From the NCBI GenBank assembly GCA_965208105.1, contig OZ242318.1, positions 3,456,001 through 3,520,000 of the forward strand: a stretch of 64,000 nucleotides of DNA, read 5' to 3'. The translations under genes were made by a program, and so were the position numbers. The notes beneath the pieces were generated by a model. The model worked only from the letters and a program-made list of their open reading frames with translations. It was not told the origin of the DNA and did no database searches. This document shows, in pieces, positions 3,627 through 64,000 of this stretch. Numbering within the stretch: the stretch's first letter is position 1; each line of letters begins with the position of its first letter. This DNA is from Candidatus Latescibacterota bacterium (GTDB lineage: Bacteria > Latescibacterota > UBA2968 > UBA8231).

Positions 3627-4949
3627 ATGCGTATCTTTTCGAGGGAGAAGGCAGTATTCCTCTTTGGGGCCGTCGGGGTCGAGGCCGGTCTGCTCTTCAT
3701 CGTCTTCCTCGGAGACCTGCGCCCTCAGATTACCCTGTTCTGGTGCGGCCTCCTGGTGGCATTTCTAAGCTACCTCCTCTGTGCATTTCGGGTTTGCAGG
3801 AAGCCCGGCTGCTCGCTTGTGGGCGTGCTCGTTGCTGCCATCGTATTTCGCCTGACCCTGCTGGGGAGCCAGCCTTCCCTGTCGGACGACGTCTACCGCT
3901 ATGTGTGGGACGGAAGGGTGCAGTTGAGCGGAATCAACCCCTATCTCCACCCGCCCTCCGCACCGGAGTTGGAACACCTGCGCGACGAATTCTATCCAGG
4001 CATCAACCACAAGGACGTTCCGACTGTATACCCGCCTGTAACCCAGTTCTATTTTCGCCTGGTCTGTTCACTTGCGCCTGCCCCGACGGCGATGAAGTGC
4101 GGGTTGGCCCTCTTCGAGTTCGGGATAGTGCTCCTGCTCGTCGGAATCCTTCGTCAGCGCCGGCAGGACGGGCGCAGGGTGCTGATCTACGCGTGGAATC
4201 CGCTCCCCGTAATCGAGGTCGCCGGCAGCGGCCACAGCGATGCCCTCGGGGTTTTTTTCCTGATGCTCTCCCTCTACGCCCTGAACGGCGGACGCCGAAG
4301 CGCTGCGGTGTGGGCCCTCGCCGCGGCTTCTCTCGTCAAATTCGTCCCCGTCCTGGCGCTCGCGGCCTTCTGGCGCCGAATGGGGTCGTCCTGGTTCGAG
4401 CTGAGACGTCGCTGGTGCCTGCTGTGGTTTCCCGCCCTGGTCGCTGCCGCGTATCTGCCCTTTGTCGGTGCGGGGGAGCAGCTGATCGCGGGGCTGAAGG
4501 CCTATGCCTACAAGTGGCGCTTCAACGATGCCCTTTTCTCAATTGCGCTCGGTGTCTCGGAATTTTTCAACCCGGGCCCGGACGGCGGTTCCTTGATGCT
4601 GGCGAAGTGGATCTGTGCCGGAGTCCTTCTTCTCGTGGTGCTTTGGACGGCCCTGCGCTGCTCCGACGTTTACCGCACTCTCTTCGTGGTTATGGGCGCA
4701 TGGCTCTTGCTCATGCCTGTCCTGCATCCCTGGTACCTGATGTGGATCCTGCCCTTTCTGCCCCTTTTTCCGCGTCCTTCCTGGATACTCTTCAGCGGCC
4801 TCGCCTTTCTTGCCTATGAAGTTCTGATTGGCTATAGTAGGGATGGAACATGGCAGGAACAGACCTGGGTGAAATGGGCCCAGTACTGTCCGTTCTACTT
4901 TCTCCTTGTGTTCTATCCCGCCTACCGACGGTGGCGGGCTGATCGTTGA
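3627..4949 (+). CDS. GT87-like polytopic membrane glycosyltransferase
   Basis: LSDDVYRYVWDG, TVYPP, YAWNPL, HPWY motifs; many TM segments. Confidence 0.85.
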   Translation: MRIFSREKAVFLFGAVGVEAGLLFIVFLGDLRPQITLFWCGLLVAFLSYLLCAFRVCRKPGCSLVGVLVAAIVFRLTLLGSQPSLSDDVYRYVWDGRVQLSGINPYLHPPSAPELEHLRDEFYPGINHKDVPTVYPPVTQFYFRLVCSLAPAPTAMKCGLALFEFGIVLLLVGILRQRRQDGRRVLIYAWNPLPVIEVAGSGHSDALGVFFLMLSLYALNGGRRSAAVWALAAASLVKFVPVLALAAFWRRMGSSWFELRRRWCLLWFPALVAAAYLPFVGAGEQLIAGLKAYAYKWRFNDALFSIALGVSEFFNPGPDGGSLMLAKWICAGVLLLVVLWTALRCSDVYRTLFVVMGAWLLLMPVLHPWYLMWILPFLPLFPRPSWILFSGLAFLAYEVLIGYSRDGTWQEQTWVKWAQYCPFYFLLVFYPAYRRWRADR

Positions 4950-5172
4950 AATCGGGGAACTTCGGGTTGCCTTGAAACGTGTACCTGTTGCAAATCCAGG
5001 CGCTTTCACGGAGTAATCCTGCGCAAGCGGCCTCGAATGCCCGGGGCGGCCCCGGGGTGCGCGCGAGCCGTGGACCTGGAATCTCGCCATGGGTGTCCGG
5101 TCATTCAGGAAATTCTATCGATGCCATGGAACGAGGAACGCCAGCCCTTTTCCCCTCCGAGGTTGAAGGAAA

Positions 5173-6081
5173 ATGTCGGGAAGCCGGCCTGCCTTGAAAT
5201 ACATACTCACCTGGGGCGCCTTGTCAGTATGCTGCCTGTATCTGGTGGGATGCCTGGAGCTGATTCGCCGCAGCCCGGCAAAGGGGGTGGAGCAGGGAAG
5301 TGCATTCACCTCCGTCCAGACGCGGGAGGACGGGACGACCGCCGCGGATGCCGGGGGCGAGGAGGATGGTGATGCGGCTGCCGAGCCGGACTCCTCGGGG
5401 TCCGAGGTTGTCGAGGGACCCGGGGCAGCAGAGGATTCACCGAAGATCACTGTGCATGATAAGGAGGAGGGACCGGCCGGGGGAGACCATCCGTCCTCAG
5501 CTCCTGGAGGAAAGGCAGGGGAGCCAGCCGCTTCCGGGGGACAGGGTGTTCAAGCCGCGGCCGGAGGAGCTCCAATGGACCCGGAAAAGGCCGGGGAGCT
5601 CGGTGATTCCCCGAATGCATCAGGGTCCGAACCGGTGATTGAAGGGCCTGCGCCTGTGGCTCCCAGGGCCGAAAAAGTAAGGCACACCAGGCGCAGCCGC
5701 AGTCGCGGTCAGGAGATCAGGCAGGTCAATGAATACGCGTTCTGGTGTCTTGAGAAGGGCCTGTGGAACGAAGCCAGGCTGCATCTGGAACAGGCGGTGG
5801 AACGGGACAGCCTGGCCGCCAGCCTGCACAACAACCTGGGAATCATCTACGAGCGCATGGGCCACGAGGAGAAGGCCCTGGCCGCCTACGGCAAAGCCTG
5901 GGACCTGAGTCCCAGGAAGAAGGCCTACAGGGACAACCTGGAGAAACTAAAGAGGCGGCAGCGGGCGATTCCCGACAGCGCCGTGCGAATAGACATCATC
6001 GACCTGGAAGACCAGGCCGAGCAGGGTCCGGCATCCGGCAGCCCCGCGGAAGCCCGGCAGTCAATCCTGGCGGGAGGGTAG
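5173..6081 (+). CDS. Membrane-anchored TPR protein with low-complexity linker
   Basis: N-terminal hydrophobic segment, acidic Ala/Gly/Pro linker, TPR motifs (LHNNLGIIYERMG..EKALAAYGKA). Confidence 0.75.
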   Translation: MSGSRPALKYILTWGALSVCCLYLVGCLELIRRSPAKGVEQGSAFTSVQTREDGTTAADAGGEEDGDAAAEPDSSGSEVVEGPGAAEDSPKITVHDKEEGPAGGDHPSSAPGGKAGEPAASGGQGVQAAAGGAPMDPEKAGELGDSPNASGSEPVIEGPAPVAPRAEKVRHTRRSRSRGQEIRQVNEYAFWCLEKGLWNEARLHLEQAVERDSLAASLHNNLGIIYERMGHEEKALAAYGKAWDLSPRKKAYRDNLEKLKRRQRAIPDSAVRIDIIDLEDQAEQGPASGSPAEARQSILAGG

Positions 6082-9000
6082 TGGTGTTGCGCAGAACAGC
6101 AAGGAGAATGCCCAAATGGAGTGGCGCCGGTTTCTTCGGCATCGCTCTGTCCGCGGCGGTTCTGTTCTGGTCTCTGCCCGCATCCGGCCAGGATATTCTC
6201 ACCTCGCAGCTGGTGCAGGGATTCGGCAAGAACAAGGTGCGCTACAAGAACTTCGACTGGTGGATTCTCGAAAGCGAGCACCTCGACCTGTATTACGAGC
6301 CCGAATTCCACGAACTTGCCGCAACGGCGGTTGAGTACCTGGAGGAGGCCTATGTCCACATCAGCGCGGTCCTGCACCACGAGCTGTCCCACCGGCCTCC
6401 CATCGTAATTTTCAAGTCGCACTACGAGTTCCAGCAAACCAACATCATCCACGAGTTCCTTCCCCCGGGAGTGGCCGGCTTTGCCGAGCCTCTGCGCTAC
6501 CGCATAGTCATTCCATTCAACGGCGACCTGGACGAGTTCCGCAACGTCCTGGTCCACGAACTCTGCCACATCTTTCAGTACGACATCCTCTACAAGGGGC
6601 CGATAAAGCGCCTGTCCAACCCCCTCAGTTCCCCGCCGACCTGGATCATGGAAGGCATGGCCGAGTACGTGACCCCCGGGCGCAACACGGTCGACGAGAT
6701 GGTGCTGCGCGACGCGGTCCTCACCGACCAGCTGATCCCCCTGGAGGCAATGAACTCGTCCTGGGGCTCCGGAAACGTCTTTCTCGCCTACAAGCAGAGC
6801 CACAGCATCATCGAGTACATCGCGGCCAACTACGGCCCCGAAAAGATCAGCCGCATCCTGCGCCTGTGGGACAGCCAGAACGACACCGACAAACTGCTGC
6901 AGCGCCTCATGGGCAAGGACATGGACATGGAGACGTTGCACGAGCGCTGGTCGGCACACATGCGCAAACAGTACTGGCCCCTTCTCCAGACCCGGGACTA
7001 CCTCGCCGAACTGGGCAGCAAGGTCGGCAGCGAAGATAACCCGTATCAAGGCTACGCCAGCGCCAAGTGGTCGCTGAGCGGCGATATGCTCGCGGTGCTG
7101 TCCTCGGACGCGGTGGAGCAGCACATCGACATCATCCGGGTTCACGACGGCTCGCTGGTCGAGCGCGTGACCAGGGGAATGTTCGCCACCCGCTACGACC
7201 ATTTGACCTTCGGCGAGGGCACCGTGGCATGGGCTCCCGACGGGCACAGCATTGCCTTTGTGGCCAAGAAGGGCCCGAAGGACATGATCCTCCTCTGGGA
7301 CCTCTACGACAAGCGGCTGGTGCAGAGCATGAGTTTTGACGGTCTGGAGGTGATCGAAGCCCTTTCCTTTTCGCCCGACAGCCGCCGCCTTGCCTTTGTG
7401 GGCAGCGGCTACGGTCAAAGCGACATCTACATGGTCGAGGTCGAAAGCGGGGACCTCACCCAGATTACCGGCACTCCCCAGCGCGACGACTATCCGGCAT
7501 TTTCCCCCGACGGGGAAAGACTCGCATTCAGCAGCAAGTACGGCACTCAATTCGACATCAAACTCTACGACTTCTCCACCGGCAAGAGCCAGGTGGTGGT
7601 GCAGAGTCCCACCGACGACCTGTGGCCCAAATGGTTCCCGGACGGAGACAAGCTGCTCTTCGTCTCGACCCGGGAAAAGATCAACGACCTCTTTGTCTAC
7701 GACCTCGAAGAGGGCCGCGAGTACCGCATCACCCGGACCTTGAGCGGGGTCATGAGCCCGGATTTGTCCGCGGACGGCAAGCAACTCATTATGAGCACCT
7801 ACTACCAGGGCCGCAGCCGTCTCTATCGGATGAAGATACCCCCGTGGCCCGAGATCGTGCGCACCAGCGCTGACCTGTACGCCCGGGCGGAAGGCGGATC
7901 TGCCCCCGGGTCGTCTCCTCCGGATCCGGCGCGGTCCGCCCGGGACAGCGAAGCGCCTCCACCGATCCCGGCTGACGAACAGTCACCGGGAGATGAAATA
8001 CATGCCGAGTTGAAGGAGGAAATTTCTCTCGTTGAGCAGGGCACCGGTCAGGGGGGTGCTGTGCTCCTGGCCGACATTTCCGGAGGTTTGACCGGGCTCG
8101 AGGCGGAGGAGAAGGCCGAACCCAAGGCCCGGGCGCCGGCCGGACCTGCGGATTCCCTGGAAACGGCGGGGATCGGAGCGCCGGAGCTGAAACGGCGCCG
8201 CTACGTTCCCAAGCTGGAGTTCGACGGCATCAGCCTGCAGATGGGCTACAATACGGGTGGTTTCCTGTCTTCGGTGGCGCAGTTGAGCATGAGCGACCTC
8301 CTTGGCAATCACTCGCTGGCCCTGGCCACCGACTACGTGGCTTCCCAGGACATCAGCAACGATTTCAACTTTGCCGGGACCTACCAGTACTACGGACAGC
8401 GTCCCACCTACAACGCAGCCGTTTTCAACTGGAACCAGTTCTACAGCGACCGCAATTTCTTCAACCAGCCGACCTTTCGCCGCACCCCCTTCACCTCGGG
8501 CATCGTGCGCATTCAACAGCGGGGGGCGCTGTTGTCGGCCTCCTATCCGCGCGACCTATACCGCCGCCTGGACCTGAACTACACCTATGTGAGCGAAGTG
8601 GAGGAACGGGTCTATCCCCAGCAGGAGCTGGTGGATTCCAGCAGCACTCACCTGCTCAGGGCCGCTTACGTGCACGATTCGATCACCTACGGGTTGCTGG
8701 GGCCCACCGCCGGCCGGAGCTACTTTCTCTCCATCGGCCGCACGCTCAGACTATCCGGCGGCGACCGTTCCTTCGCCCACATCGAGGTGGACTACCGCCA
8801 TTACCTGCGCCTGGGCCGCTGGTCGGTGCTTGGCCTGCGCGGCAGCAGCATCTCATCCATAGGGCCGGACGCACTCAGCTACAACCTGGGCGGCCCCGCC
8901 TGGTGGCAGCCGTTCTACGCCGGGTTCAACCTCAACGCCGGCCCCTTGCGAGGCTACAAATGGTCTGAGCTTCAGGGCAGCCGGGTGGTGCTGGCGAACG

Positions 9001-9326
9001 CCGAGTTGCGCGTGCCGTTTATTCGGGGCATCCTTTTCGGCTGGCCCGGAAATTTCGTCATTCCCGCGGTGGACGGCAGCGCATTTCTTGACCTGGGGAC
9101 GGCGTGGGACGAGACGGACAAGCTTGAACTCTGGCCGCTTTACAATCCCGAATCCCCGGATACCGCCCTCGAGCCAGGGGCCGTGAAGTCCCTGCGTGCA
9201 AGTGTGGGCTTCGGACTGGTGCTCTACTTCATCCTGCCGATGAATTTCGAGTGGGCATGGCAGACCGACCTGCAAGGCCACTATTCGGACCGCCGCTTTC
9301 ACTTCAGCTTTGGACAAAGTTTTTGA
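6081..9326 (+). CDS. Zincin peptidase (MA-like) + TolB-like PD40 propeller + Omp85/BamA-like barrel protein; start uncertain (6081-6108)
   Basis: HELCH...WIMEGMAEY; repeated W/FSPDG motifs; PLRGY, ANAELRVP and C-terminal FHFSFGQSF barrel signature. Confidence 0.85.
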   Translation: MVLRRTARRMPKWSGAGFFGIALSAAVLFWSLPASGQDILTSQLVQGFGKNKVRYKNFDWWILESEHLDLYYEPEFHELAATAVEYLEEAYVHISAVLHHELSHRPPIVIFKSHYEFQQTNIIHEFLPPGVAGFAEPLRYRIVIPFNGDLDEFRNVLVHELCHIFQYDILYKGPIKRLSNPLSSPPTWIMEGMAEYVTPGRNTVDEMVLRDAVLTDQLIPLEAMNSSWGSGNVFLAYKQSHSIIEYIAANYGPEKISRILRLWDSQNDTDKLLQRLMGKDMDMETLHERWSAHMRKQYWPLLQTRDYLAELGSKVGSEDNPYQGYASAKWSLSGDMLAVLSSDAVEQHIDIIRVHDGSLVERVTRGMFATRYDHLTFGEGTVAWAPDGHSIAFVAKKGPKDMILLWDLYDKRLVQSMSFDGLEVIEALSFSPDSRRLAFVGSGYGQSDIYMVEVESGDLTQITGTPQRDDYPAFSPDGERLAFSSKYGTQFDIKLYDFSTGKSQVVVQSPTDDLWPKWFPDGDKLLFVSTREKINDLFVYDLEEGREYRITRTLSGVMSPDLSADGKQLIMSTYYQGRSRLYRMKIPPWPEIVRTSADLYARAEGGSAPGSSPPDPARSARDSEAPPPIPADEQSPGDEIHAELKEEISLVEQGTGQGGAVLLADISGGLTGLEAEEKAEPKARAPAGPADSLETAGIGAPELKRRRYVPKLEFDGISLQMGYNTGGFLSSVAQLSMSDLLGNHSLALATDYVASQDISNDFNFAGTYQYYGQRPTYNAAVFNWNQFYSDRNFFNQPTFRRTPFTSGIVRIQQRGALLSASYPRDLYRRLDLNYTYVSEVEERVYPQQELVDSSSTHLLRAAYVHDSITYGLLGPTAGRSYFLSIGRTLRLSGGDRSFAHIEVDYRHYLRLGRWSVLGLRGSSISSIGPDALSYNLGGPAWWQPFYAGFNLNAGPLRGYKWSELQGSRVVLANAELRVPFIRGILFGWPGNFVIPAVDGSAFLDLGTAWDETDKLELWPLYNPESPDTALEPGAVKSLRASVGFGLVLYFILPMNFEWAWQTDLQGHYSDRRFHFSFGQSF

Positions 9327-10036
9327 GAAGGCATTTCCCCTTCATCGGCTGCCTGGCCATTGCCGCGGGATTCCTTGGCTGTGCGAGCCAGGGCACCTTC
9401 AAGACGGTCGAGTTCCAGGCGCCGTCCCTGCCCGATCCGGCCCTGCGTCCTCTGCTCGAGGACGTCAAGCGCATCGGCGTGCTCTCCATTACCAATATCG
9501 ACCCTTTCAGGGAGTTGGACATCGAGAAGGTCATGGCCCGGATGGGCGACGCCATCGCACGGGGATTGAGCAACAGGCCCCGGACCACGGTGGTATCCCA
9601 GGACGAGATCACCTGGCACTTCAAGGATATGGCCTTCGATTCGACCAATGTCTTCACCAGGAAGACGAGAACCGCCCTGCGCGAGGAGATGAAGCTCGAT
9701 GCTCTGGTTTTTGTCGAGCTCAACGGTGTGCAGGCGCGCATGGCCCCCGTGTCTCCCTCGCCCTATGCCTATGGGGGACTCACTCCCAATCCGAGCATGA
9801 CCATGTCGGTGGATCTGCAGGTGAGCCTGATCAACCTGCACAGCGGCAAGGCCTGGCAGCGCCAGGGGCGGCAGCGCAACTGGCAGCCGATCCAGATTTC
9901 GCAGCTCATGGGTGCCGGCAACCAGACCGAGCGTCAGTTGATGATGGCCATGGCGGGGACCCTGCGGCAGTTCTTCCTGATGGTGGCCCCGCCTCCGCGC
10001 CTGCAGGCGCGCCGTTTCGAGATCAGCGGCAATTGA
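9323..10036 (+). CDS. Hypothetical lipoprotein
   Basis: TTG start overlapping upstream stop; signal MRRHFPFIGCLAIAAGFLGC. Confidence 0.7.
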   Translation: MRRHFPFIGCLAIAAGFLGCASQGTFKTVEFQAPSLPDPALRPLLEDVKRIGVLSITNIDPFRELDIEKVMARMGDAIARGLSNRPRTTVVSQDEITWHFKDMAFDSTNVFTRKTRTALREEMKLDALVFVELNGVQARMAPVSPSPYAYGGLTPNPSMTMSVDLQVSLINLHSGKAWQRQGRQRNWQPIQISQLMGAGNQTERQLMMAMAGTLRQFFLMVAPPPRLQARRFEISGN

Positions 10037-10053
10037 ATTGAGTGAGACCTGCA

Positions 10054-10100
10054 GAACGAAAAGAGGCGGATGGTGAATATCCATCCGCCTCTTTTCGTTC
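10054..10100. terminator. Bidirectional intrinsic terminator between convergent genes
   Basis: Perfect 20-bp inverted repeat GAACGAAAAGAGGCGGATGG-7 nt-CCATCCGCCTCTTTTCGTTC. Confidence 0.85.
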
Positions 10101-10116
10101 CGGTCGGGAGGTCGTA

Positions 10117-10872
10117 CTATCGGCCGCCCCGGCGCTTGGGCTTGGTGCTGCCCTTCTCCTCCGAAGTGGAGGCGGGCTTGGAGCTCTTGGGTTTCGCGCT
10201 GCCGCTCGATGAAGGTGCCGGTCGCGACGTGGCGGCGGGGCGGGTTCGCCGCGGTTGCTCGCGCTGGTCCCACAGGCGTTCGGCCCTGCGGCGCTCCTCG
10301 CGGCGCAGGGCTCCGGTGTCTACCGCCGGTTGGGTCGACAGGGCCTGCTCGGCCGCGCGCAGTTGATTGAGGGTGGCGATGCTCACCAGCTCGTATCCCG
10401 GGGGGACGTAGTAGCCGCTGCCGTCGCGGTAGTAGGGATCGGCGCCGTAGCCATAGGGATCGGCACCGTAGCCGTAATAGGAAGAGGGGCCATAGCCGTA
10501 GCCGTAGGGATAGTACCCTTGGCCATAGCCGTAAGGATAATACCCCTGACCATAGCCGTAAGGAGAGCCCAGCGCGGCACCGTAGAGACCGTACCTGGAG
10601 TCGAAGCCGAAGAGGGGATAGCCGCCATAGCCCTCAAATCCATAGGTCCCGGCAGGTGCATTCGGATAGTAGAAATCGTTCCAGGGGTCCGGCCGCTCCT
10701 GGAAACGGCCAAGAGTGGGTGCCTCTTCCCATTTTTCCTGTCCCTGGGACAACTCCTGTGCCCTCCGCAGGTCGGCGGCTGTTTTGGGTCCCTGAAGCAC
10801 AGTATAACAACCACTCAGAAGGAAACAGGCCAGACCGAGCGCTGTGGTCGGGAACAAAATTTTCGCCTTCAT
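10117..10872 (-). CDS. Tyr/Gly-rich lipoprotein
   Basis: Lipobox LLSGC; YGYG repeats; basic Ser/Lys/Arg tail. Confidence 0.75.
   Translation of the reverse strand: MKAKILFPTTALGLACFLLSGCYTVLQGPKTAADLRRAQELSQGQEKWEEAPTLGRFQERPDPWNDFYYPNAPAGTYGFEGYGGYPLFGFDSRYGLYGAALGSPYGYGQGYYPYGYGQGYYPYGYGYGPSSYYGYGADPYGYGADPYYRDGSGYYVPPGYELVSIATLNQLRAAEQALSTQPAVDTGALRREERRRAERLWDQREQPRRTRPAATSRPAPSSSGSAKPKSSKPASTSEEKGSTKPKRRGGR
10433..10563. repeat. Intragenic 21-nt and 27-nt tandem repeats (YGYGADP x2, YGYGQGYYP x2)
   Basis: Visible in both DNA and translation. Confidence 0.8.
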
Positions 10873-11109
10873 GACAACCTGCTTTCTGCCCGGGTGGGCG
10901 TTCTTCCCAAATGTAGAACCTTGCATGGAGGATGCGGGTTCCTGGCCAGATTCAAAGTGGACCTGGCTGCAGGTTAAGATAATAAAAAAATGTCCGCAGT
11001 CAAACCCTTCTGGTGCCCGGACCGCAGTTGCCGATCGCCGTCCTGGTTGAGATATAAGACGTAATAAATAAAGGAAGTTAATTTATAATCCAGGATTCCG
11101 CGGCAGCGG

Positions 11110-12456
11110 TTAAAAGCGATAGCTCGCGCTGGCGAAGATGCGGCTGAGGACGGTTTCTTCCGCAAGATCGCCTTCAACCACTTCGAAATCACCGCGGGTC
11201 CAGGCCGCGTCCACCTGCATGACCTCGTCGAAAAGCATGCCCGCTCCCAGGGTGAAATACCGGCGGTCGCGCACGATGGAGATGAGGGGATTAGTAGCAG
11301 GATTGGGGCTGAGGTCCGGATCCCGCGGTCCGACAAAGGGCCAGGGGTCGCTGTAATAGCCGGCCCGGAGGTCCAGGGTGATGACGGGGACCTGCCATTC
11401 GATGCCCAGGTGATAGCGAACCACGTCTTCGTACTGCTCCTCGAAGGCGGCATTGGCGCGCACTCCGTACTCGTCCTCGCCCTTGTACTCGCTCTGGGAC
11501 CACCCTGCCACGTGGGCGCTGCCGGCCAGCCAAAGGCCCTTGACGGGCTGGCAGGAGAGGCCGGCGCCGAACTGCAGCGGCAGGGAGAGTTTGTAGGAGC
11601 CGCTATCGACTATGTTGCGGGTGGTCTCGGGCTCGCGGCCGTCGTCGTACTCGATGGAGTTGTAGCCGAATCCGCCGTCCTCGTCGTCCATTGCATAGGA
11701 GAATTCGTAGTCGATCTTGTAGGTGGGTCCGGTGGATATGGTGGCGCCGAAGCGCACCCTCGGATCCTCCCGGGGGGTGCGCACCATGGCGCCCAGGGTG
11801 GCGCCGAAGGCCGTGTTGTAGTCGTCATTGAATTCATCCCTTGCACTCCAGCGGCTCTCGATGAAATGGTCTTCGCTGTCGATCCAGTTGAAGTCGCGGA
11901 TGTTTTCGTCTTCCCCTGACAGGAAATTCAGGGTCATACCCAGGGCAATCGAGGGGGAGATGTCGATGGCCCCCGCGAGCGACACCATGGTCAGGTCGCC
12001 CTCGTGGCTGAAGGTATCGTCTATCTTCAGGCTGTCGACCTCGCTGAATCCCCGGATGCGGACGATCGAATCGAAGTCCTTGACCTGGTTGAAGCCGGCG
12101 CCGAAGACCAGGCTGCCCCTGTAGACGGGGTAGGGATAGACCAGGCCGAGAGAGCCGATGCGGGTGTTGCTCAGCCCGCTGGACGTGGGCGTTCCTGAAG
12201 CCTTCCGGGCATTGTTGTCGTAGGTGTTGTGGATGACCGCAACGTAGCCCTGGCGCTGGCGCATCTGCGCCAGCCCGGCCGGGTTCCAGAACACCGCGGT
12301 GAAATCGTCCGCCACCCCCACGTAGGCGCCGCCCATGCTCATGGCGCGAACGCCGAGTCCGGCGAAATTGCTGATGGCGCGCTCCTGGGCCGCCAAGGTG
12401 CCGGCGCAGCAAACGCTGAATACCAGGGCGGACAAGGTGCAGCTGATTCTCGGCAT
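11110..12456 (-). CDS. FadL/OmpP1/PorV-like outer-membrane beta-barrel
   Basis: Signal peptide; GVRAMSMGGAYVGVADDFTAVFWNPAGL motif; C-terminal SYRF. Confidence 0.85.
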   Translation of the reverse strand: MPRISCTLSALVFSVCCAGTLAAQERAISNFAGLGVRAMSMGGAYVGVADDFTAVFWNPAGLAQMRQRQGYVAVIHNTYDNNARKASGTPTSSGLSNTRIGSLGLVYPYPVYRGSLVFGAGFNQVKDFDSIVRIRGFSEVDSLKIDDTFSHEGDLTMVSLAGAIDISPSIALGMTLNFLSGEDENIRDFNWIDSEDHFIESRWSARDEFNDDYNTAFGATLGAMVRTPREDPRVRFGATISTGPTYKIDYEFSYAMDDEDGGFGYNSIEYDDGREPETTRNIVDSGSYKLSLPLQFGAGLSCQPVKGLWLAGSAHVAGWSQSEYKGEDEYGVRANAAFEEQYEDVVRYHLGIEWQVPVITLDLRAGYYSDPWPFVGPRDPDLSPNPATNPLISIVRDRRYFTLGAGMLFDEVMQVDAAWTRGDFEVVEGDLAEETVLSRIFASASYRF

Positions 12457-13244
12457 CAGAACTCCTCCGCGTAGAGAACGGTCAGCTCGCGGCTCATGTT
12501 GGACAATTTCGCCTTGCCCTCGCCGGCGTTTCCCAGCATGTCCTTGAGGTAGAATCCCAGGGTGAGCTGCGGCCCGACGGACCAGCGCCCCCCGGCGTTG
12601 AGGTATCCCCTGCCAGAGCCCAGCGCCTCCTGGGCGTTGTCGTTGAATCCCGGATCGTATTCGGCTACCAGGGCCAGTTGGCCGCCGATGCCCTTATCGA
12701 TGCCCAGCCACCCTGAAAGGTCGTCGTCGTCGCGGTTTTCGCGGCTGAGATTGAACCCTCCGTGGATCCCGAACTGCCCCAGGGGAGATATGTAGTTCTT
12801 GCTCAGAACCACGAGGAACCCCTTGGACTTGATCTGGTAGCGGTCGTTTTCGTGGGTGCCGTATCCCTGTGTCTCGTAGCCCAGGACCAGGGCCGGCCAG
12901 GTGGTGTTTTCTTCGATCAGGCGGAATTTCACCGCCGCCTCCACCCGGGGGTACCAATCGATGTCCTGGTCTCCGATGATCTGCTCGCCGCCAAAGGAGA
13001 TCCCGACGGTGAGACGTGAAAGGACGCCTGCGTGCAGCTGGGTGGAGACGCCGCCGTTGGGAAAGAAGCGCAGGTCGATGCCGAAGCGTCCTTTGTCTGC
13101 GAGTCCCGCCGTGGGGCTGTCGATGAGGCGGGCTTGTTCGGACAGGGGCTCGGCTTCTGCGCGGATGAAGGAGAGAGAGGCAAACCCGGGGGCAAGCAGG
13201 AGCAGGAGGTGAAGCGGGCGAAGCGGTAGTCTGGTTGTATGCAC
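12456..13244 (-). CDS. YjbH-like outer-membrane barrel protein
   Basis: Probable GTG start with GGAAGG upstream; signal peptide; LIDSPTAG motif; amphipathic strands; terminal Phe. Confidence 0.65.
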   Translation of the reverse strand: MHTTRLPLRPLHLLLLLAPGFASLSFIRAEAEPLSEQARLIDSPTAGLADKGRFGIDLRFFPNGGVSTQLHAGVLSRLTVGISFGGEQIIGDQDIDWYPRVEAAVKFRLIEENTTWPALVLGYETQGYGTHENDRYQIKSKGFLVVLSKNYISPLGQFGIHGGFNLSRENRDDDDLSGWLGIDKGIGGQLALVAEYDPGFNDNAQEALGSGRGYLNAGGRWSVGPQLTLGFYLKDMLGNAGEGKAKLSNMSRELTVLYAEEF

Positions 13245-54694: not shown

Positions 54695-54829
54695 AGGTTT
54701 TTTCTCTTTTCTGAGGCGGCGTTTCAAGGTCTGGCACATCTGGAGTCCAAAACGGATGGTGAAGAAGGGTGCAAAGGGGTCGTCAGGCGAGTGCACTCGC
54801 CCGAACTCGCAGCAGTCGGAGTCAGCAGA

Positions 54830-55741
54830 ATGCTAGAAAGATTCACAGGACGCGGTGGTCGTCGCCTCGCAATTGAGGCGCTCAGAAGACAACCTGTCAT
54901 AGGCGAAGCCGAGAATCTTGCAGAGACCATCTGCGATAATGCTGAGGTCGTGGGCTTCGCTCCGGGTTCCCCCATAATTGAAGAATCAGCGCCAGACAAC
55001 GACATCTACTTCATCTTGGCCGGGGTTGTCTCAATCCGAGTGGTTGGCAGAGAGATTGCGGTTAGGACTGCAGGACACCACATCGGTGAAATGGCAGTAT
55101 TGGATCCTGGACAGCCACGGTCCGCATCCGCGGTCGCTGAGGGAGAGGTTGTCACCGCACGTGTTTCCGCAGGGGCGTTCAGCGAACTGGCTGAGGCCAA
55201 CCCTCGACTATGGCGGAACATAGCTCGTGAGTTGGCTGAACGTCTTCGACAACGGAACCGCTTCATCTCCCCGGTGAATCCCCGGCCTGTCTTGTTTCTG
55301 GGCTGTTCGACAGAGTCGCTTCCCATCGCTCGCGCGATCCAATCGGCACTCGAGCACGACCCGATAGTAGTCAAAGTCTGGACAGATGACATCTTCGAGG
55401 CATCGAACTTCCCAATCGAGTCCTTGGAGCGGGAGTTGCCGAAGGTGGATTTTGCGGCACTTGTCCTGTCCCCGGACGATAGAGTGGTCAGCCGAAATGA
55501 AGCAAGTGACGCGCCAAGAGACAACATCGTGTTTGAATTGGGACTTTTCATGGGGGCTCTGGGCCGCGCCCGTACGTTCCTGATCTACCCACACGGTGTC
55601 GATGTCAAGATTCCGACAGACCTTGAAGGGATAATACCCCTCACCTACAACCCAAGCCCGCAGTGCGAGGTTGACGCTACTGCCGTAGCGTCAGCAGGTA
55701 ATCGATTGAGAAACCAGATACTGTCAGTTGGATGTCGTTGA
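54830..55741 (+). CDS. pycTIR: Pycsar effector PycTIR (cNMP-binding domain + TIR NADase)
   Basis: IGEMA..PRSAS cNMP-binding motif; FLGCS, DFAALVLSPDD, PRDNIVFELGLFMGALG TIR motif; adjacent cyclase. Confidence 0.9.
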   Translation: MLERFTGRGGRRLAIEALRRQPVIGEAENLAETICDNAEVVGFAPGSPIIEESAPDNDIYFILAGVVSIRVVGREIAVRTAGHHIGEMAVLDPGQPRSASAVAEGEVVTARVSAGAFSELAEANPRLWRNIARELAERLRQRNRFISPVNPRPVLFLGCSTESLPIARAIQSALEHDPIVVKVWTDDIFEASNFPIESLERELPKVDFAALVLSPDDRVVSRNEASDAPRDNIVFELGLFMGALGRARTFLIYPHGVDVKIPTDLEGIIPLTYNPSPQCEVDATAVASAGNRLRNQILSVGCR

Positions 55742-55764: not shown

Positions 55765-56460
55765 GTGGGGCTCGGAGATGACCTCAATTCAGAAGTGCAT
55801 AAAGTCCTCCAAGAGAAATGGTCTGCACGGGCCGGTCGATCTGTCCCGGAATCAGACGGCCTGAAGCTAGACAATGATGCCGTCACCCTGAAAGGTACAG
55901 TCCTCTATGCAGATCTCGACAACTCGACGAATCTGGTAGATACTAAGAATCCTCGGTTCTCGGCAAAGATCTACAAATGCTACTTGGCATGCTGTGCAAG
56001 GATTATCCGTTCAGAGGGTGGGGTAATCACCTCATACGATGGGGACCGCATTATGGCGGTGTTTATTGGCAAGACAAAGAACAGTAACGCCGCACGCACT
56101 GCTCTCAAGATCAACTACGCAGTAAGAGAGATCATCAATTCCGCGATCCGGGATCAGTACCCCAAAAGTAGCTATTCGGTAAGGCACGTAGTCGGTATCG
56201 ACACCAGTGAGCTTTTCGTGGCACGCACGGGCATCCGGGGCGCCAATGACCTCGTCTGGGTTGGGCGCGCTGCAAACTATGCGGCCAAATTGTCAGCACG
56301 GTCAGGGCCTGCTACACAGATTACTGCTGACGTATACGGGATGCTCTGTGAAAGCTCGAAGCTCAGCGGGGCCGGGAAGGAAAATATGTGGACCCTAACA
56401 ACTGCCCCAGAAATCGGAGACAAGACAATCTATACTTCATCCTGGTGGTGGCGACTGTAG
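55765..56460 (+). CDS. pycC: Pycsar pyrimidine (probably uridylate) cyclase
   Basis: TVLYADL, YDGDRIMAVF, RHVVGID, NDLVWVGRAANYAAKL, aromatic-rich C-terminus. Confidence 0.9.
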   Translation: MGLGDDLNSEVHKVLQEKWSARAGRSVPESDGLKLDNDAVTLKGTVLYADLDNSTNLVDTKNPRFSAKIYKCYLACCARIIRSEGGVITSYDGDRIMAVFIGKTKNSNAARTALKINYAVREIINSAIRDQYPKSSYSVRHVVGIDTSELFVARTGIRGANDLVWVGRAANYAAKLSARSGPATQITADVYGMLCESSKLSGAGKENMWTLTTAPEIGDKTIYTSSWWWRL

Positions 56461-56582
56461 ACGAGCATGGAGTCAATCCCCACGCTTCACAATCTCAAGA
56501 GTGGTGGTCTCTGGATGCCCGTTCCCTTGAACGTGATTGCATCCTTGCATCCTGCCGAGGAAGCCGGTTGAGGAGCCGCTGA

Positions 56583-56837
56583 ATGTCCCTGGTACATCCC
56601 GGCGAGATTCTGCGGGAGGAGATGCACGAGCGCAGCCTCTCAGCCAACGCACTGTCCCAAGCGCTCGACATCCCCGTAAACCGTATAACTGCCATCCTAA
56701 ACGGGCATCAGGGTGTCACGCAAAACATCGCACGCCGCCTGTCGCGGTACTTCGGGACAACGCCAGACTTCTGGCTCAATCTGCAGAAGACCGGGGAGTT
56801 TCGCCGCGCCGGGACCGGAGCGAGATACCTGCCCTGA
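56583..56837 (+). CDS. Orphan HigA/VapI-family HTH antitoxin
   Basis: HPGEILREE..LSANAL..RI..I..G..A.RL..YFGTTPDFWLNLQ. Confidence 0.82.
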   Translation: MSLVHPGEILREEMHERSLSANALSQALDIPVNRITAILNGHQGVTQNIARRLSRYFGTTPDFWLNLQKTGEFRRAGTGARYLP

Positions 56838-56852
56838 CAGACAGATTCCGAC

Positions 56853-58763
<1,911 letters not shown>

Positions 58764-59045
58764 GGGGCGGTACCTGGCTGAGCGGAGTGATCGAAAGGAC
58801 CGGCAAACAGAACGGGATGTTGCCCTCCACATCGAGGAATCCCAATGGATGGGACCGCCCGCCATCCGCATGGCTCCTACGAAGGCCGGAGTGCTAACGG
58901 TCGGGACATGACGCCTTCGTACGGGCAATGTCCTCTGTCCAACAAACTAACGCCTTGATTGGGGTTATCCTATGGAGTCCTCACCACTAGAAGGATTGCC
59001 ATTCATGCCCAAGTATCGCAACTGCTTCTACGGAGTCGGCACGCG

Positions 59046-62000
59046 ATGACCGAACCTCCTACACCGCACGTCCCTGCCGATCTTCGTCTGTACTTGGACA
59101 CGATTGCGGACCGGTTGCTCTCTGGGCACGCAGCCGTCATGGTCGGGTCCGGCTTCAGCAAGAACGCTGCACCGACTGGCTCTCATCCTGGATTCCCCGA
59201 TTGGTCTCGATTGGGCGACCGCCTCTTCGAGAAGCTCCACGGCCACCCCCCAGGACCCAACGAGAGATATCTTCAGGTTCCCGCGCTGGCGCACCAGGTC
59301 GAGGCCGCCTTTGGCCGGCCCGCCCTCGACCAGATGCTGCGGGACTCCATCCCTGACCTGCAACATGAACCCTCGCAACTCCACGAGGATCTGCTTGACC
59401 TCCCTTGGTCCGACGTTTTCACTACGAACTACGACACCCTTCTCGAACGCGCCCGTCGATCAGTCATTTCCCAACGGTTCGATGTCGTGCTCAAGCCCGA
59501 CGACCTCGGACACTCCAATCGCCCCCGCATCGTCAAGCTGCATGGCAGCCTGCCGTCCGACCGCCCGTTCATCGTCACCGACGAGGACTACCGGAGATAT
59601 CCCCACCAATTCGCTCCCTTCGTGAACGCGGTTCGCCAAGCCCTGCTTGAGAACACGCTCTGCCTACTCGGGTTCTCCGGCGACGACCCAAACTTCCTGC
59701 AATGGGTCGGATGGATCCACGACCATCTCGGCCACCGCAATTCGCCCAAGATGTACCTCGTCGGCCTGCTTCAGCTTTCCCCTTCCCAGAAAACGCTTCT
59801 TGAACGCCGTAACATCACTCCAGTCGACATGTCTGCGTGTCCCGGCATCGGCAATGATCACTATCAGGCCCTCGACTTGTTTCTCCGCTATCTCCACTCT
59901 CGCCAAATCGCAGACAATCAACTCGACTGGCCATTCAGGGCCGACGACCAGCCTACATCGCCTGATAGTAAGGAGCCCCGGGAGATCGTCGAGATATGGA
60001 CCGCCCAGCGTCGACGATATCCCGGGTGGATGGTTCTTCCCGAAGACCTGCGTTCGTCACTCTGGCTCCAGACCGACGATTGGCTCCGAGGCCCGCCCTC
60101 CGCAGATGCCCTTCCCCCGGTTCTCGACCTCGAGTTCGCCTTTGAACTCGTGTGGCGCATGGAAAGATGCCTTTGCCCGATCCTTGACAATCAAATCCCC
60201 TTCTTTGAGGAAACGATAGATCGCTACTGGTTGGCTACCAACTCCGCCGCTTCGCTCGACTCGCTGTCTCTCGGTGGGAACGAGGTCGACGCCCGAGGGC
60301 TTACCCTGGACGCCATCCGACACCGCTGCCACTACCTCCTCCTTGCCATGCTGCGTCGTTACCGCGAAGAGGGGCACACCGCCAAATGGGATGACACCTG
60401 CCAGAGGATTCAGGCAGTTCTGCCAATCCTCTCTCCAGAGCACGCGGCGTGGTTCCACTATGAGCGGGCACTATTCTCCTTGTTCGCCCTAAATCTCGAA
60501 CAGCTCAAGACCCGCCTCGCCGAATGGCCGCGCAACGACGCACTTCCATTCTGGGCCGCGAAAAAGGCGGGCTTGCTCGCGGAGATCGGTGAGGTGAACG
60601 AAGCCCGGCAAATTCTGGAGCAGTCATTGGACACGATTCGAGTAAAGTTGAACCTCACCCCCACGGGGAAAGACTACACCTTGGTGTCCCAAGAGGCCTT
60701 CGTGATGTACCTGCTCCAGGCGGTGCGACAGTCATCCATCCTTGAAGAGCCGGACCAATCCGAATCTCACCGTCAGCGACGGGAGTTCCGAGAGCGTTGG
60801 CATGTTCTTAAGCAGTACAAGTGCGACCCTTGGCAGGAGATCGCGACCTTCAAACACAAACTGCAGCGCCCTCCTGCAATAACGCCCGACGTTACTGAGG
60901 AGCCCACGTTCGATATAGGGAGGTCCATACAAACACACCATATTCAAGCCTGGAACGAGGAAGCCTTGGCCGCATACAACTTCCTGCGGTTCTGCGAAGA
61001 TGCCGGCATCCCATTCCGGGTGTCCAACTATATGATTGCCACAAAGAGCGCCGAAGGAATACTGACGCGTATCTCTGAGTATTCGTCATTTTGGGCACTG
61101 GCAACCCTTGTGAGAATCAATGACGCCAAAGCTGTCGACAAGATCTTCCACCGGGCCTCTCTTGCGCGAATGAATACGCCGTCTGTCGACCGTCTCATCG
61201 ACCGTTACCTGGAGTCCCTTAGGCTCGCACTCCCAGACATCGCCACAGGGGGCCGCCGGCCCGGTGCCACTTTCGGCACGGTATTAGCCCAAGTTCTGCC
61301 GGAGATCCTTTCGCGGTTGTGTTGCAAGTGTTCACGAGACGCCAGGGAGATGCTCCTCGACTGGCTTCTGGAAGTTTACCGGTCAAATCCCAGGCCGAAC
61401 TACCAAGGCATAAAAAACGTAATGAGTAGGCTTCTCGAAGCACTCCCGGTGACTGAGCGTGTCGCCATAGTACCGAAACTTCTCCAGTTTCCCATTCTGT
61501 CGGAACTTAACGCGCTTGAAGAAGGGGAATACCTGAATCCGTTTGAATTTCTCGATCTCCCCGAGGACTTGATCGACGAAGTCACGATGTCGGACACGCA
61601 GCTTGACCTTTTTTTCGACGGAGCGTCCTCCGACAAGCCTTCCGTACGGAGATGGGCGATATCTACGCTCGATAAGTTGCATTCCGGGGGACTGCTGGAC
61701 CACGCTGCGTCACAACGGTTCTGCGAAGCCCTGTGGAGTCGAGTCGACGAGCACGGTCTGCCTTCGGATACTAATTACTATCGATTTGCCTTTTTGTCTC
61801 TGCCGCATCCGAAAGAAGTTGACCCGGTTGAGGGCTTCATTCGATATGTGCGGGCAGCGCAGTTTCCCGCTCAGGAGAACCAAACGCAAACCACGATCGG
61901 AATTGACGCGAACGGCAAGGTGCCCCTTTGTCATGACATTTGCTCGGCGAAGGACATCCCGTGGTCCGGGGATGATGTTCACTCCATCGTACACCGTCTC

Positions 62001-62792
62001 GTACAGTGGTGGGACAACGACAAGGCACACTTGCTTCGGGTTCAGGGGTACGGGCTGTTTGCAGGTATTGACAATAATCTTAGAAAGGGACTGTCGGATT
62101 TGGTGATGACGCTCGCGACGATGGTTGTGAGATATCCTGATTCAGTACGAGACGAGAACATTCGGGATGTAGTGACACGGGTTGCGAAGGAGTGCTCCGG
62201 GTACGGCGTGCTAGCGCTGCCCCTAGAGGTCGCCTGCTCGTACGTCTTAGCCGCTTCACCCGATTCTGTGTTGCGACGTGTAGTGGACGCGATGGACTCG
62301 ACCTCCAAGAGCACCGTCATAGATGCCCTTAAGGCCTTGGCCTTGGTCTCGGATCGGACTGGGTCCGAATCAGACGGGGAGGATCTGATCCAGCTGCTCC
62401 GAGCGGTCGGCCAGATGATTCGATGGCGGCGGGCAACAGCCTTGTGGATGACCATGGAGGTGGTGGGAAACGTTGTGAAAAAGCATACTTGGGCGTTCGT
62501 CGATGACGTCGAGAACGGGGTGCTAACGGGGCTTAAGCATCTGGTGACGGAAACGGTGGTGGAGGGGAAGAACGAGGGGGGAATTCAGGCGAACACCGGT
62601 TCGGAGGACGTATCGTGGAAGCTGTTGGTGAGGCGGGCTTCCGCGAGACTTTCGTACAGACTTTTCGAACATTATCGATCAGTCGGGGAAGCAGTCCCCG
62701 AGATAATAAGGGCTTGGGAGACAGTCTGCCGGTCGGAGGATGAGTTCTGGGAAATCAGGAACCAATGGCTTGCCCCCCAGAGTCCGGGGTGA
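59046..62792 (+). CDS. Defence-associated sirtuin (DSR-type): N-terminal SIR2 NADase + long helical C-terminal region
   Basis: VMVGSGFS, FTTNYD, IVKLHGS, LGFSGDDPNF; ~1250 aa; defence-island context. Confidence 0.85.
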   Translation: MTEPPTPHVPADLRLYLDTIADRLLSGHAAVMVGSGFSKNAAPTGSHPGFPDWSRLGDRLFEKLHGHPPGPNERYLQVPALAHQVEAAFGRPALDQMLRDSIPDLQHEPSQLHEDLLDLPWSDVFTTNYDTLLERARRSVISQRFDVVLKPDDLGHSNRPRIVKLHGSLPSDRPFIVTDEDYRRYPHQFAPFVNAVRQALLENTLCLLGFSGDDPNFLQWVGWIHDHLGHRNSPKMYLVGLLQLSPSQKTLLERRNITPVDMSACPGIGNDHYQALDLFLRYLHSRQIADNQLDWPFRADDQPTSPDSKEPREIVEIWTAQRRRYPGWMVLPEDLRSSLWLQTDDWLRGPPSADALPPVLDLEFAFELVWRMERCLCPILDNQIPFFEETIDRYWLATNSAASLDSLSLGGNEVDARGLTLDAIRHRCHYLLLAMLRRYREEGHTAKWDDTCQRIQAVLPILSPEHAAWFHYERALFSLFALNLEQLKTRLAEWPRNDALPFWAAKKAGLLAEIGEVNEARQILEQSLDTIRVKLNLTPTGKDYTLVSQEAFVMYLLQAVRQSSILEEPDQSESHRQRREFRERWHVLKQYKCDPWQEIATFKHKLQRPPAITPDVTEEPTFDIGRSIQTHHIQAWNEEALAAYNFLRFCEDAGIPFRVSNYMIATKSAEGILTRISEYSSFWALATLVRINDAKAVDKIFHRASLARMNTPSVDRLIDRYLESLRLALPDIATGGRRPGATFGTVLAQVLPEILSRLCCKCSRDAREMLLDWLLEVYRSNPRPNYQGIKNVMSRLLEALPVTERVAIVPKLLQFPILSELNALEEGEYLNPFEFLDLPEDLIDEVTMSDTQLDLFFDGASSDKPSVRRWAISTLDKLHSGGLLDHAASQRFCEALWSRVDEHGLPSDTNYYRFAFLSLPHPKEVDPVEGFIRYVRAAQFPAQENQTQTTIGIDANGKVPLCHDICSAKDIPWSGDDVHSIVHRLVQWWDNDKAHLLRVQGYGLFAGIDNNLRKGLSDLVMTLATMVVRYPDSVRDENIRDVVTRVAKECSGYGVLALPLEVACSYVLAASPDSVLRRVVDAMDSTSKSTVIDALKALALVSDRTGSESDGEDLIQLLRAVGQMIRWRRATALWMTMEVVGNVVKKHTWAFVDDVENGVLTGLKHLVTETVVEGKNEGGIQANTGSEDVSWKLLVRRASARLSYRLFEHYRSVGEAVPEIIRAWETVCRSEDEFWEIRNQWLAPQSPG

Positions 62793-62941
62793 TGGGTCAT
62801 TGGGCCTATCGTCGGCCGCTGTCGCCCGGGCACATCGAGGTCGCGGAATCGGTCCGGAAGCTCCGAGAGTTAGAGTGGGAGCGGCCGACGGCCGAGGCGA
62901 CGGTGAATCGGTATCTGGAGGAGTTGGAGTATGACGCCTGA
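62792..62941 (+). CDS. 49-aa mini-ORF encoding an HsdM C-terminal helix homolog (contains repeat copy 2; not in ORF track)
   Basis: MGHWAYRRPLSPGHIEVAESVRKLRELEWERPTAEATVNRYLEELEYDA*; ATG overlaps the SIR2 stop (TGATG); end overlaps the hsdS start. Confidence 0.55.
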   Translation: MGHWAYRRPLSPGHIEVAESVRKLRELEWERPTAEATVNRYLEELEYDA

Positions 62942-64000
62942 AGGTTGGGCCGAGACCGCGTTGGAACAGGTGGCTGAAGTGGCGATCGGTAAGACGCCCG
63001 CCCGCAATGAGAAGTCATTCTGGGATCCAGGAAAAACAACGCAGAATCGATGGGCGACGATCGGGGATATACAGAGTAGGTATATCAGGGAAACCTCCGA
63101 ACATATCTCCGACCTTGGAGTTCAGCACTCAAACGCGAGGCTCGTTCCGGCTGGCACTCTGTTGATGAGCTTCAAGCTTACCCTCGGGCGAGCTGCGATC
63201 ACCTCGAAGCCCATGTATACGAACGAGGCAATAGCAGCGTTCTACCCAAGTGGTAAGGCCACGACGGAATATCTCTACTACCTCCTCCCAACCCTCGCGC
63301 TAGAGGAATCTTCCGATCATGCGGTAAAGGGACGGACCCTGAACAAAGCGAAGCTTCGAGCTCTCAGACTTGCCCTGCCCCCGCTCCCCGAGCAGCGCAA
63401 GATTGCCGCCATCCTCTCCTAGGTGGACGACGCCATCGAGAAGACCCAGGAGGTCATCGACCAGGTGCAGGTCGTCAAGCGCGGCCTGATGCAGGAGCTG
63501 CTCACGCGGGGCCTGCCGGGCAGGCACACGCGGTTCAAGCAAACCGAGATTGGGAAAATACCGGAGGAATGGGAAGTCCGTGAGCTTTCTGACCTATGCC
63601 ACCGGACGTTCGTTGGTATCGCTCAAGCCGCAACACATGCGTATGCGGAACAAGGTGTTCCCATCGTCCGTACAACGAACGTCCGAGAGAATGGTCTGGA
63701 TATGGACAGCCTGCTGCGCATCACCGAGGAATTCGCTGGGGAGATGAAGGGGAAGACACTTTGCGCGGGGGATGTATTGACGGCAAGAACCGGCTATCCC
63801 GGAACATCCGTCGTCGTGCCTGAATCCTTGGCCGGTGGGCAATGCTTCACCCTACTCGTCTCTCGTCCTGGACCGCGACTTCGGTCGAGATTCTTGTGTC
63901 ATACGATGAACTCCGACATCGGCAGCCGGATCGTAAATCGTGGACAAGCCGGAGGAGCCCAGCAGAATCTCAACGTATCGGTTTTCAAGAAGGCGCAGTT
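62931..64000 (+). pseudogene. hsdS: Type I R-M specificity subunit interrupted by in-frame TAG at 63420-63422; runs off the window
   Basis: TRD1 then PPLPEQRKIAAILS*VDDAIEKTQEVIDQVQVVKRGLMQELLTRG..IPEEW and TRD2 open to base 64000. Confidence 0.88.

Follow-up and report, generated by a model that had tools for sequence, protein, structure and literature searches.

A short hsdM relic between a DSR2 gene and hsdS in a Type I restriction-modification operon of Candidatus Latescibacterota, read as a probable recombination scar

Introduction

Defense genes can be embedded in Type I restriction-modification (R-M) operons, and PrrC is one of them. Here, we describe such an arrangement at the end of a 64,000-nucleotide stretch of DNA (termed here the window) from a Candidatus Latescibacterota bacterium (assembly GCA_965208105.1, contig OZ242318.1, forward-strand positions 3,456,001 to 3,520,000), in which a sirtuin gene of the DSR2 family lies between the methylase gene hsdM and the specificity gene hsdS, and in which a frame of 49 codons, the last 35 of them resembling the 3′ end of hsdM, connects the sirtuin gene to hsdS. 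We argue that this hsdM-like segment (the relic) is probably a recombination scar that was retained for the hsdS start region it contains, rather than a gene that encodes its own product.

The TgvAB genes of Vibrio cholerae VPI-2 are defense genes embedded in a Type I R-M operon (PMC11411939, which cites Payne and colleagues for embedded genes). Going by the available sections of that article, the window resembles the TgvAB locus in that a stand-alone defense gene is situated on the same strand between hsd genes in an operon-like array; those sections mention no duplicated hsdM end, whereas here an apparent scar would show the arrival of the cargo, and such scars accompany several kinds of cargo (DSR2, a PIN pair and Fic). 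In Bacillus, DSR2 depletes NAD+ when triggered by a phage tail tube protein (available parts of bioRxiv 10.1101/2021.12.14.472415, PMC10981675 and others). The sirtuin of the window is likened to it by a full-length match to the PADLOC Dsr2 profile and an N-terminal SIR2 domain, both known from the sequence alone, and differs in that it comes from an uncultured bacterium and is 30–77% identical to the 36 relatives found.

At the EcoKI junction, as set out in the accessible part of PMC3510504, hsdS starts inside the end of hsdM. The junction in the window is alike in this respect, with the relic keeping the ribosome site, the ATG and the 11-nt overlap, but the upstream frame has just 49 codons and stands behind DSR2, not in a working hsdM, and the coupling known for EcoKI is here a possibility raised by the geometry. 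In EcoKI, HsdM touches the coiled coil of HsdS through its C-terminal region, and binding to M1S1 is lost once ~43 C-terminal residues are removed (PMC2647291, in the portion available). An earlier annotation of the window (the original prediction) had named the short frame a hidden open reading frame (ORF) linking the sirtuin to hsdS, and had considered it as a translational relay, a decoy or adaptor peptide, or a scar from a donor hsdM allele; its premise that the HsdM C-terminus takes part in assembly holds for EcoKI. Truncated hsdM genes are mentioned in passing in the available portions of a few genome papers, and a full-text search of openly available papers, which cannot prove that none exists, found no description of a duplicated hsdM end as an embedding scar. 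The finding adds an example to two known kinds, gene relics and embedded cargo (here DSR2).

Results

The 3′ end of hsdM is present twice

The Type I R-M locus forms the + strand end of the window, with hsdM, DSR2, the short frame and hsdS in that order. Its main features are:

56853..58763, + strand: hsdM, the intact resident methylase gene, 636 aa (Pfam N6_Mtase 3.4e-103, covering 3-310 of 311; HsdM_N 4e-33)
58656..58766, + strand: repeat copy 1, the functional hsdM 3′ end from codon 602 to the stop plus 3 nt (direct-repeat search)
59046..62792, + strand: DSR2-family defense sirtuin (PADLOC PDLC02184 Dsr2; Pfam SIR2_2 5e-22, N-terminal)
62792..62941, + strand: 49-codon frame, made up of 14 unique codons and the 35-codon hsdM 3′ relic (sequence, ORF list)
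62834..62944, + strand: repeat copy 2, apparently the 5′-truncated relic of a second hsdM copy (direct-repeat search)
62917..62923, + strand: GGAGGAG, Shine-Dalgarno-like, 7 nt before the hsdS ATG (sequence)
62931..64000, continuing to window-equivalent 64175, + strand: hsdS, with an in-frame TAG at 63420-63422 (Pfam Methylase_S 2e-28, stop read as X)

The only long direct repeat in 56500-64000 pairs 58656-58766 with 62834-62944, over 111 ungapped nt that are 79% identical and whose longest identical run is 15 nt. A scripted recount of the relic against the resident hsdM gave the same figures that had been counted by hand for the original prediction (26 of 35 residues identical, no indels, 8 codons differing only synonymously), with 22 of 105 bases different. 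When the last 67 aa of HsdM were used as a tblastn query, the relic was recovered at E = 4e-12 in the locus and 2.2e-9 in the whole genome, and on these scores the match is far beyond chance. The likeness is confined to HsdM residues 602-636, the whole hsdM being 4.2 kb upstream. In the 41 nt that separate the DSR2 stop from the repeat there is no resemblance to hsdM, as 1077 of 2000 shuffles reach their best local alignment score.

Both ends of the 49-codon frame have the geometry of coupled gene pairs, and the elements reported for it earlier are all present in the sequence: the sirtuin stop (TGA, 62790-62792) overlaps an ATG (62792-62794) within TGATG (62790-62794), the frame contains GGAGGAG, and its own stop (TGA, 62939-62941) falls 8 nt past the hsdS ATG (62931), producing the 11-nt overlap. 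The frame is not strictly hidden, as had been claimed, since gene calling in the source genome already included the 49-aa product (P0001). It is the -1 frame of DSR2, open from 62744 and thus overlapping the last 16 DSR2 codons, and a second in-frame ATG at 62765 would yield 58 aa. This 58-aa frame matched no Pfam family at E <= 0.01 and no PADLOC family, whereas the resident hsdM matches both HsdM_N and N6_Mtase; of what defines an HsdM, the N-terminal domain and the catalytic domain with its AdoMet-binding and NPPF motifs are missing from it and the C-terminal HsdS-contact region is there by homology alone. A gene relic is recognized by its likeness to part of a working gene, and here both a full hsdM and an empty site (see below) are available for comparison.

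The cargo preceding the relic is, judged from its profile match and N-terminal SIR2 domain, a full-length DSR2 (E = 0 and 1321.8 bits against the PADLOC Dsr2 profile, residues 38-1271 aligning to 5-1220 of 1222). Its frame is open from TTG 58959 (1277 codons, 58959-62792), and ATG 59046 is the likely start because homologues align only from about residue 26-38.

The arrangement was checked against Logan contigs from four runs of one sample (X1 to X4), which span 62600-63416 or further without gaps and with 0 differing letters in X1-X3 and 1 in X4. Loose contig ends in X2-X4 carry hsdM 3′ end sequence, which is consistent with contigs spanning the hsdM end, DSR2, the relic and hsdS. Because these runs may be from the genome's source sample, they are a check on the assembly and not independent support.

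The only congeneric genome has an empty site

Synteny with G015, the sole congeneric genome, extends to either side of the locus, taking in an upstream block (86%), a helix-turn-helix (HTH) gene (88%), hsdM (91.3% over 1914 nt) and hsdR (89% over 3921 nt), and at the syntenic site the hsdM of G015 abuts hsdS directly, without DSR2. Because hsdM of G015 runs straight into hsdS, DSR2 is an insertion relative to that genome, and the repeat would be its mark. Likeness to G015 stops 3 nt past the hsdM stop of the window and does not resume until the central conserved region of hsdS (92%); neither target-recognition region of hsdS is related between the two genomes. The GC content at third codon positions (GC3) is 0.676 in DSR2 as against 0.915 in hsdM and 0.883 in hsdR.

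Repeat copy 1 is 91% identical to hsdM of G015, equal to the average for the gene, and repeat copy 2 is 82.5% identical. In search of the native copy, both repeats were compared with G015, and the two copies of a related locus (L070, see below) with eight other alleles; all alleles of the order proved to be so alike (92-95%) that neither comparison singles out a native copy. Outside coding sequence, blastn of the DSR2 flanks (58764-59060 and 62650-62840) found nothing common to the 36 DSR2 loci, and therefore no cassette ends can be defined. To locate a donor junction, 76 genomes of the window's order were searched with the first target-recognition region (TRD1) of hsdS; no donor emerged, the closest match reaching 34%.

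Truncated second copies of hsdM recur with different cargo

Scanning one genome per species for DSR2 relatives produced the 36 loci, six of which have an HsdM match within their 7-kb flanks, four of these (L006, L009, L010 and L037) from the window's HsdM family:

L009 and L037: DSR2, then a whole hsdM, then hsdS
L010 (G170:C13): hsdM, DSR2, a second hsdM, hsdS
L006: hsdM, AAA_15/21 ATPase, 163-aa ORF, RNA ligase, DSR2, 66-aa relic (HsdM 570-635), hsdS

In L006, ~12 more hsdM-like codons precede the relic in another frame, and an RNase_T-BRCT gene after hsdS is common to L006 and L009. Locus L010 is heavily invaded by ISL3 and IS66 elements, with both of its hsdM copies and DSR2 interrupted, and a third hsdM tail fragment (54% identical, 5463-5567) adjoins a PIN gene there, apart from any hsdS.

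The last 67 aa of HsdM also served as query against the 76 genomes of the order, where we inspected all hits with a short open frame, and extending this survey by 104 genomes around L006 added L080:

L070 (G012:C2), 4873-9790: hsdM, PIN/VapC-like pair, 283-codon 5′-truncated hsdM, hsdS
L071 (G042:C1), 4682-10931, of another HsdM family: hsdM overlapping Fic, 57-aa relic, ThsB-like TIR and SLATT, 291-aa ORF, hsdS cut by an insertion sequence (IS)
L072 (G013): relic with two frameshifts, no hsdS nearby
L080 (G268:C3), 11643-13011: in-frame internal hsdM deletion joining residues 1-27 to 500-635 (163 aa), before a shortened hsdS
G043: hsdM with an internal deletion, followed by Fic
G048, G037 and G053: decayed loci with DnaJ, RhuM and hsdS fragments

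The L070 pair (AbrB/SpoVT-like and PIN, VapC-like) was named by eye, and its 283-codon hsdM has neither an internal stop nor a frameshift. The two hsdM copies of L070 are 94.7% identical over 832 nt with dN/dS 0.18 (34 silent and 22 replacing differences), and the copies thus diverged mostly as working genes; the truncated one would therefore be a second allele brought in by recombination, not a fresh duplication in place. The relic of L071, open over 69 codons, does not adjoin hsdS, and the locus looks like layered insertions at one hsdM-hsdS junction. L080 keeps the native hsdM start and the overlap with hsdS, and no whole hsdM is present in a 16-kb stretch around it (~11.6 kb upstream and 3.9 kb downstream). 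Two further candidates (L081 and L082) were rejected as frameshifted whole genes. A phylum-wide extension to 168 genomes yielded no further relic of the window's HsdM family, and a metagenome scan with the last 499 aa of DSR2 returned 96 pattern matches with no relative among them.

A truncated second hsdM before hsdS is thus recurrent, with differing cargo and break points, and second copies of one family range from full length through 283 and 66-78 codons to the 35 codons of the window. Together with the empty site in G015, this series supports the proposal, one of several in the original prediction, that the segment is a scar from a donor or second hsdM allele.

The relic has diverged, but little at the start of hsdS

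The relic differs from alleles of its own order at 17-22 positions in 99-105 nt, and from three intact alleles of the L006 group at 23-32. Ten of its base states in 99 nt occur in none of 13 other copies, compared to 0-3 unique states in nine copies of its own order. Seven of the ten are replacing and three silent. The last 27 nt, where the hsdS ribosome site is situated, contain just one of them. Among the amino-acid changes are Ala to Ser, Ala to Pro, Met to Val and Gly to Glu, affecting positions that do not vary in those 12 compared copies that are intact there; the copy in L010, which has a replaced end, likewise departs from the others at two of these positions (Ala to Pro and Gly to Glu in the relic). 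Among intact alleles, too, the stretch at the start of hsdS is nearly invariant in DNA. This is the pattern to be expected if constraint on the protein were gone while the hsdS start region remained constrained.

The Shine-Dalgarno-like GGAGGAG itself arises by a GCG-to-GAG change (Ala to Glu) in the relic, intact alleles having mostly GGCGGAG, and this change would strengthen the hsdS ribosome site. Scanning 56400-64000 for promoters and terminators returned none on the + strand between hsdM and hsdS, counts being at shuffle level, with the caveat that the sigma-70 consensus may not apply to this organism. Predicted RNA folds are no better than those of shuffles, both at the relic junction (62780-62980, z = -0.83) and at the native junction (z = +0.59). 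A look-up of RNA runs for 62300-63300 listed none.

Further downstream, hsdS is itself disrupted: the in-frame TAG at 63420-63422 interrupts the central conserved region (…AAILS*VDDAIE…) at a codon that is TCG (Ser) in G015, and contig X2 (62600-63481) crosses this codon with 0 differences. Since a GTG directly follows the TAG, two half-size HsdS polypeptides are conceivable, and hsdS is either dead or made as two halves.

Does the short frame encode a protein of its own?

A search for relatives of the 58-aa frame among proteins of 31-102 aa in a large collection returned the frame itself alone, although the search needs shared 5-residue words and distant relatives could be missed. No relative of similar length has a conserved start and leader, as a conserved small protein would. 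Of the overlapping ATG and open frame, whose conservation the original prediction had proposed as a check, the start and the leader are not conserved: the leader is unique, and L006 differs in its start.

A query with the final 67 aa of HsdM brought up, in public data, 126 clusters of predicted proteins of 36-118 aa, which may be relics, pieces of frameshifted genes or contig-end fragments. The 120 listed (P0002-P0121) are 61-94% identical, many on contigs of megabase size. Many clusters begin at internal hsdM start codons or in the +1 frame of hsdM, and some have common non-HsdM leaders (MSSPGRAGVYVE…, MTRGGLTTIP…). Several that begin in the +1 frame (MSTPTWR…) re-enter hsdM at different points, which indicates frameshifts. 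No leader among the clusters is like that of the window.

Scar or functional frame

We consider it likely that the relic is a recombination scar. The hsdM end is duplicated, the site is empty in the congeneric genome, truncated second copies recur within one HsdM family, and the relic has a long private branch that spares the start of hsdS; retention of the segment would be explained by this start region. Several results weigh against this interpretation. The dN/dS of the relic against the family consensus, a calculation suggested in the original prediction and since carried out, is 0.34 and falls within the 0.09-0.63 of intact copies, such that on 33 codons, which give little power, the relic is inseparable from them, in pairwise comparisons as well. 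The 7:3 ratio of replacing to silent unique changes is like the 8:4 pooled from nine same-order copies, of which one is truncated and eight are intact, and the long branch could stem from an unsampled, divergent donor allele. The TG after the TGA stop has a chance of about 6%. The stronger GGAGGAG shows that the region matters for hsdS but fits a scar and a relay alike. Finally, all four truncated or deleted hsdM copies that directly abut hsdS (35 codons in the window, 66 in L006, 283 in L070 and 163 in L080) are open throughout and have an in-frame start, while of the three relics apart from hsdS, L072 is broken by frameshifts, L071 is open, and the frame of the third L010 copy is unscored; this set is very small and was chosen by us, and young remnants would be open anyway.

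The four open remnants are what a coupling requirement predicts, and they lead to the foremost alternative, that of a translational relay. Ribosomes ending at the DSR2 stop would restart at the overlapping ATG and again at hsdS, which would recreate the native hsdM-to-hsdS coupling and tie hsdS to the translation of DSR2, and selection would keep the frame open with the peptide itself irrelevant. The geometry makes this possible, with TGATG at 62790-62794 and a frame that ends 11 nt into hsdS, as does the precedent of EcoKI, whose hsdM and hsdS overlap and are translationally coupled (PMC3510504, in its available part); nor is there a terminator-like site on the + strand between hsdM and hsdS. 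However, the same configuration is within reach of chance: in simulations, 51% of 35-codon relics stay open after 22 neutral substitutions and 28% of random 14-codon leaders are open with a start, so that an open frame with a start is expected about once in 7 (0.51 x 0.28) under full neutrality. Leader and start are also not conserved, that of L006 being unrelated to the window's and its ATG adjoining the DSR2 stop in another frame. As hsdS has its own ribosome site, strengthened in the relic, coupling may be unneeded, and the fold at 62780-62980 (see above) gives no sign of a structure that translation must open. The premature TAG in hsdS, moreover, leaves a relay with little to couple to or serve in this genome. 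What stands of the relay proposal is thus its geometry; with no relative of similar length, a unique leader, and an open frame and start within chance, it has no positive support, and we regard it as unlikely.

A more general form of the relay, in which cargo between hsdM and hsdS is tolerated only with a translated hsdM remnant before hsdS as a selected relay ORF, strikes us as distinctly unlikely. If true, it would explain why four remnants before hsdS are open as against one of three apart from it being frameshifted, and it would tie synthesis of the specificity subunit to the embedded defense gene.

A role for the peptide itself is highly improbable. As a decoy or adaptor, the 49-aa product would act as the HsdM C-terminal helix and bind the HsdS coiled coil, titrating HsdS or tethering DSR2 to the complex. 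Its 26 retained residues and the part played by the homologous region of EcoKI HsdM, which contacts the HsdS coiled coil and is needed for assembly (available portion of PMC2647291), speak for such a peptide, but it has a Pro and a Trp inside the predicted helix, in addition to its changes at positions constant in the 12 intact copies, and no relative of similar length was found in the protein search. Remnants of 35, 66 and 283 codons, some of them frameshifted, occupy the same place elsewhere, which fits debris and not a defined peptide, and DSR2 acts stand-alone in the accessible parts of bioRxiv 10.1101/2021.12.14.472415 and PMC10981675. This part of the original prediction finds no support.

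A -1 frameshift near the C-run at 62774-62779 that joined DSR2 to the HsdM tail, with the sirtuin docking on HsdS, would exploit the -1 frame open from 62744, but we set this aside as next to inconceivable, as reading by eye reveals no slippery heptamer (X XXY YYZ) in the frame of DSR2, DSR2 homologues end at the same place without an extension, and the arrangement is not seen in L006.

Other features of the locus

Two further features occupy the left junction, between hsdM and DSR2:

58753..58911, + strand: 52-codon orphan frame from a vestigial hsdS-type start, ATGACGC, 11 nt before the hsdM stop (ORF list)
58764..59045, + strand: spacer from the hsdM stop to the likely DSR2 start, unique sequence (blastn against 36 DSR2 loci)

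The orphan frame mirrors the relic in that hsdS start signals are kept without an hsdS, its start geometry (ATGACGC) being the same as at hsdS 62931; past the hsdM stop its likeness to hsdS starts is weak, and it matched no Pfam family. GC content in the spacer is 0.578, compared to 0.680 for hsdM.

The N-terminal extension of hsdM contains two tandem 62-nt units (57090-57214, 73% identical) that encode a proline-rich repeat, and a weak match to the SAP domain (E = 7.8e-4, which falls short of the Pfam cut-off) lies just before them. The Type I locus is closely preceded by a Pycsar pair, consisting of a PycTIR effector (54791-55741) and a PycC cyclase (55765-56460; PADLOC E = 3e-101 and 5.6e-98, respectively), which is missing from the syntenic region of G015, where ~3.2 kb of other DNA separates the HTH gene from hsdM. 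Beyond the window, hsdS continues in the adjoining stretch (L003) and is followed by small antidote-like genes, hsdR (HSDR_N, SWI2_SNF2 and T1RH-like_C) and a YgjP-like gene. The stretch between hsdS and hsdR (L003 9305-10511, window-equivalent 65305-66511) holds two antidote-like HTH genes of the dnstrm_HI1420 family and a 106-aa ORF, and a 324-nt part of it (L003 9361-9684) is 94% identical in G015.

Discussion

How a scar of this kind might form and persist can be outlined from the layout of the junction. On the scar interpretation, a second, 5′-truncated copy of hsdM (62834-62938) would have been left behind when DSR2 came between the resident hsdM and hsdS. Because the ribosome-binding site and ATG of hsdS lie inside hsdM coding sequence in this family, expression of hsdS can outlast a rearrangement only if the hsdM end is retained, and the final ~30 nt of the relic, which form the translation-initiation region of hsdS, are probably why it survived. 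Elsewhere the relic would be drifting, and the ATG that overlaps the DSR2 stop, like the leader of 14 codons, would be incidental.

Two routes to the duplication are possible. In the first, a block consisting of cargo and a second hsdM-hsdS would have been acquired and later trimmed, with L010, in which whole copies of hsdM flank DSR2, representing an intermediate. In the second, the duplication would result from homology-driven insertion-duplication at the hsdM 3′ end.

For annotation, these loci carry a warning: a short called gene that matches the HsdM C-terminus is not necessarily a new protein, and may be debris or a split gene. Were the frame to act as a relay, the acceptance of embedded genes by operons would be subject to a further constraint. 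Read as a scar, which we hold to be the probable case, the relic would be a readable record of a stand-alone DSR2 entering a Type I restriction operon, and would identify the hsdS start region as the part of hsdM that is indispensable; the hsdM-hsdS junction would then be a place where cargo has landed repeatedly in these uncultured soil-type bacteria.

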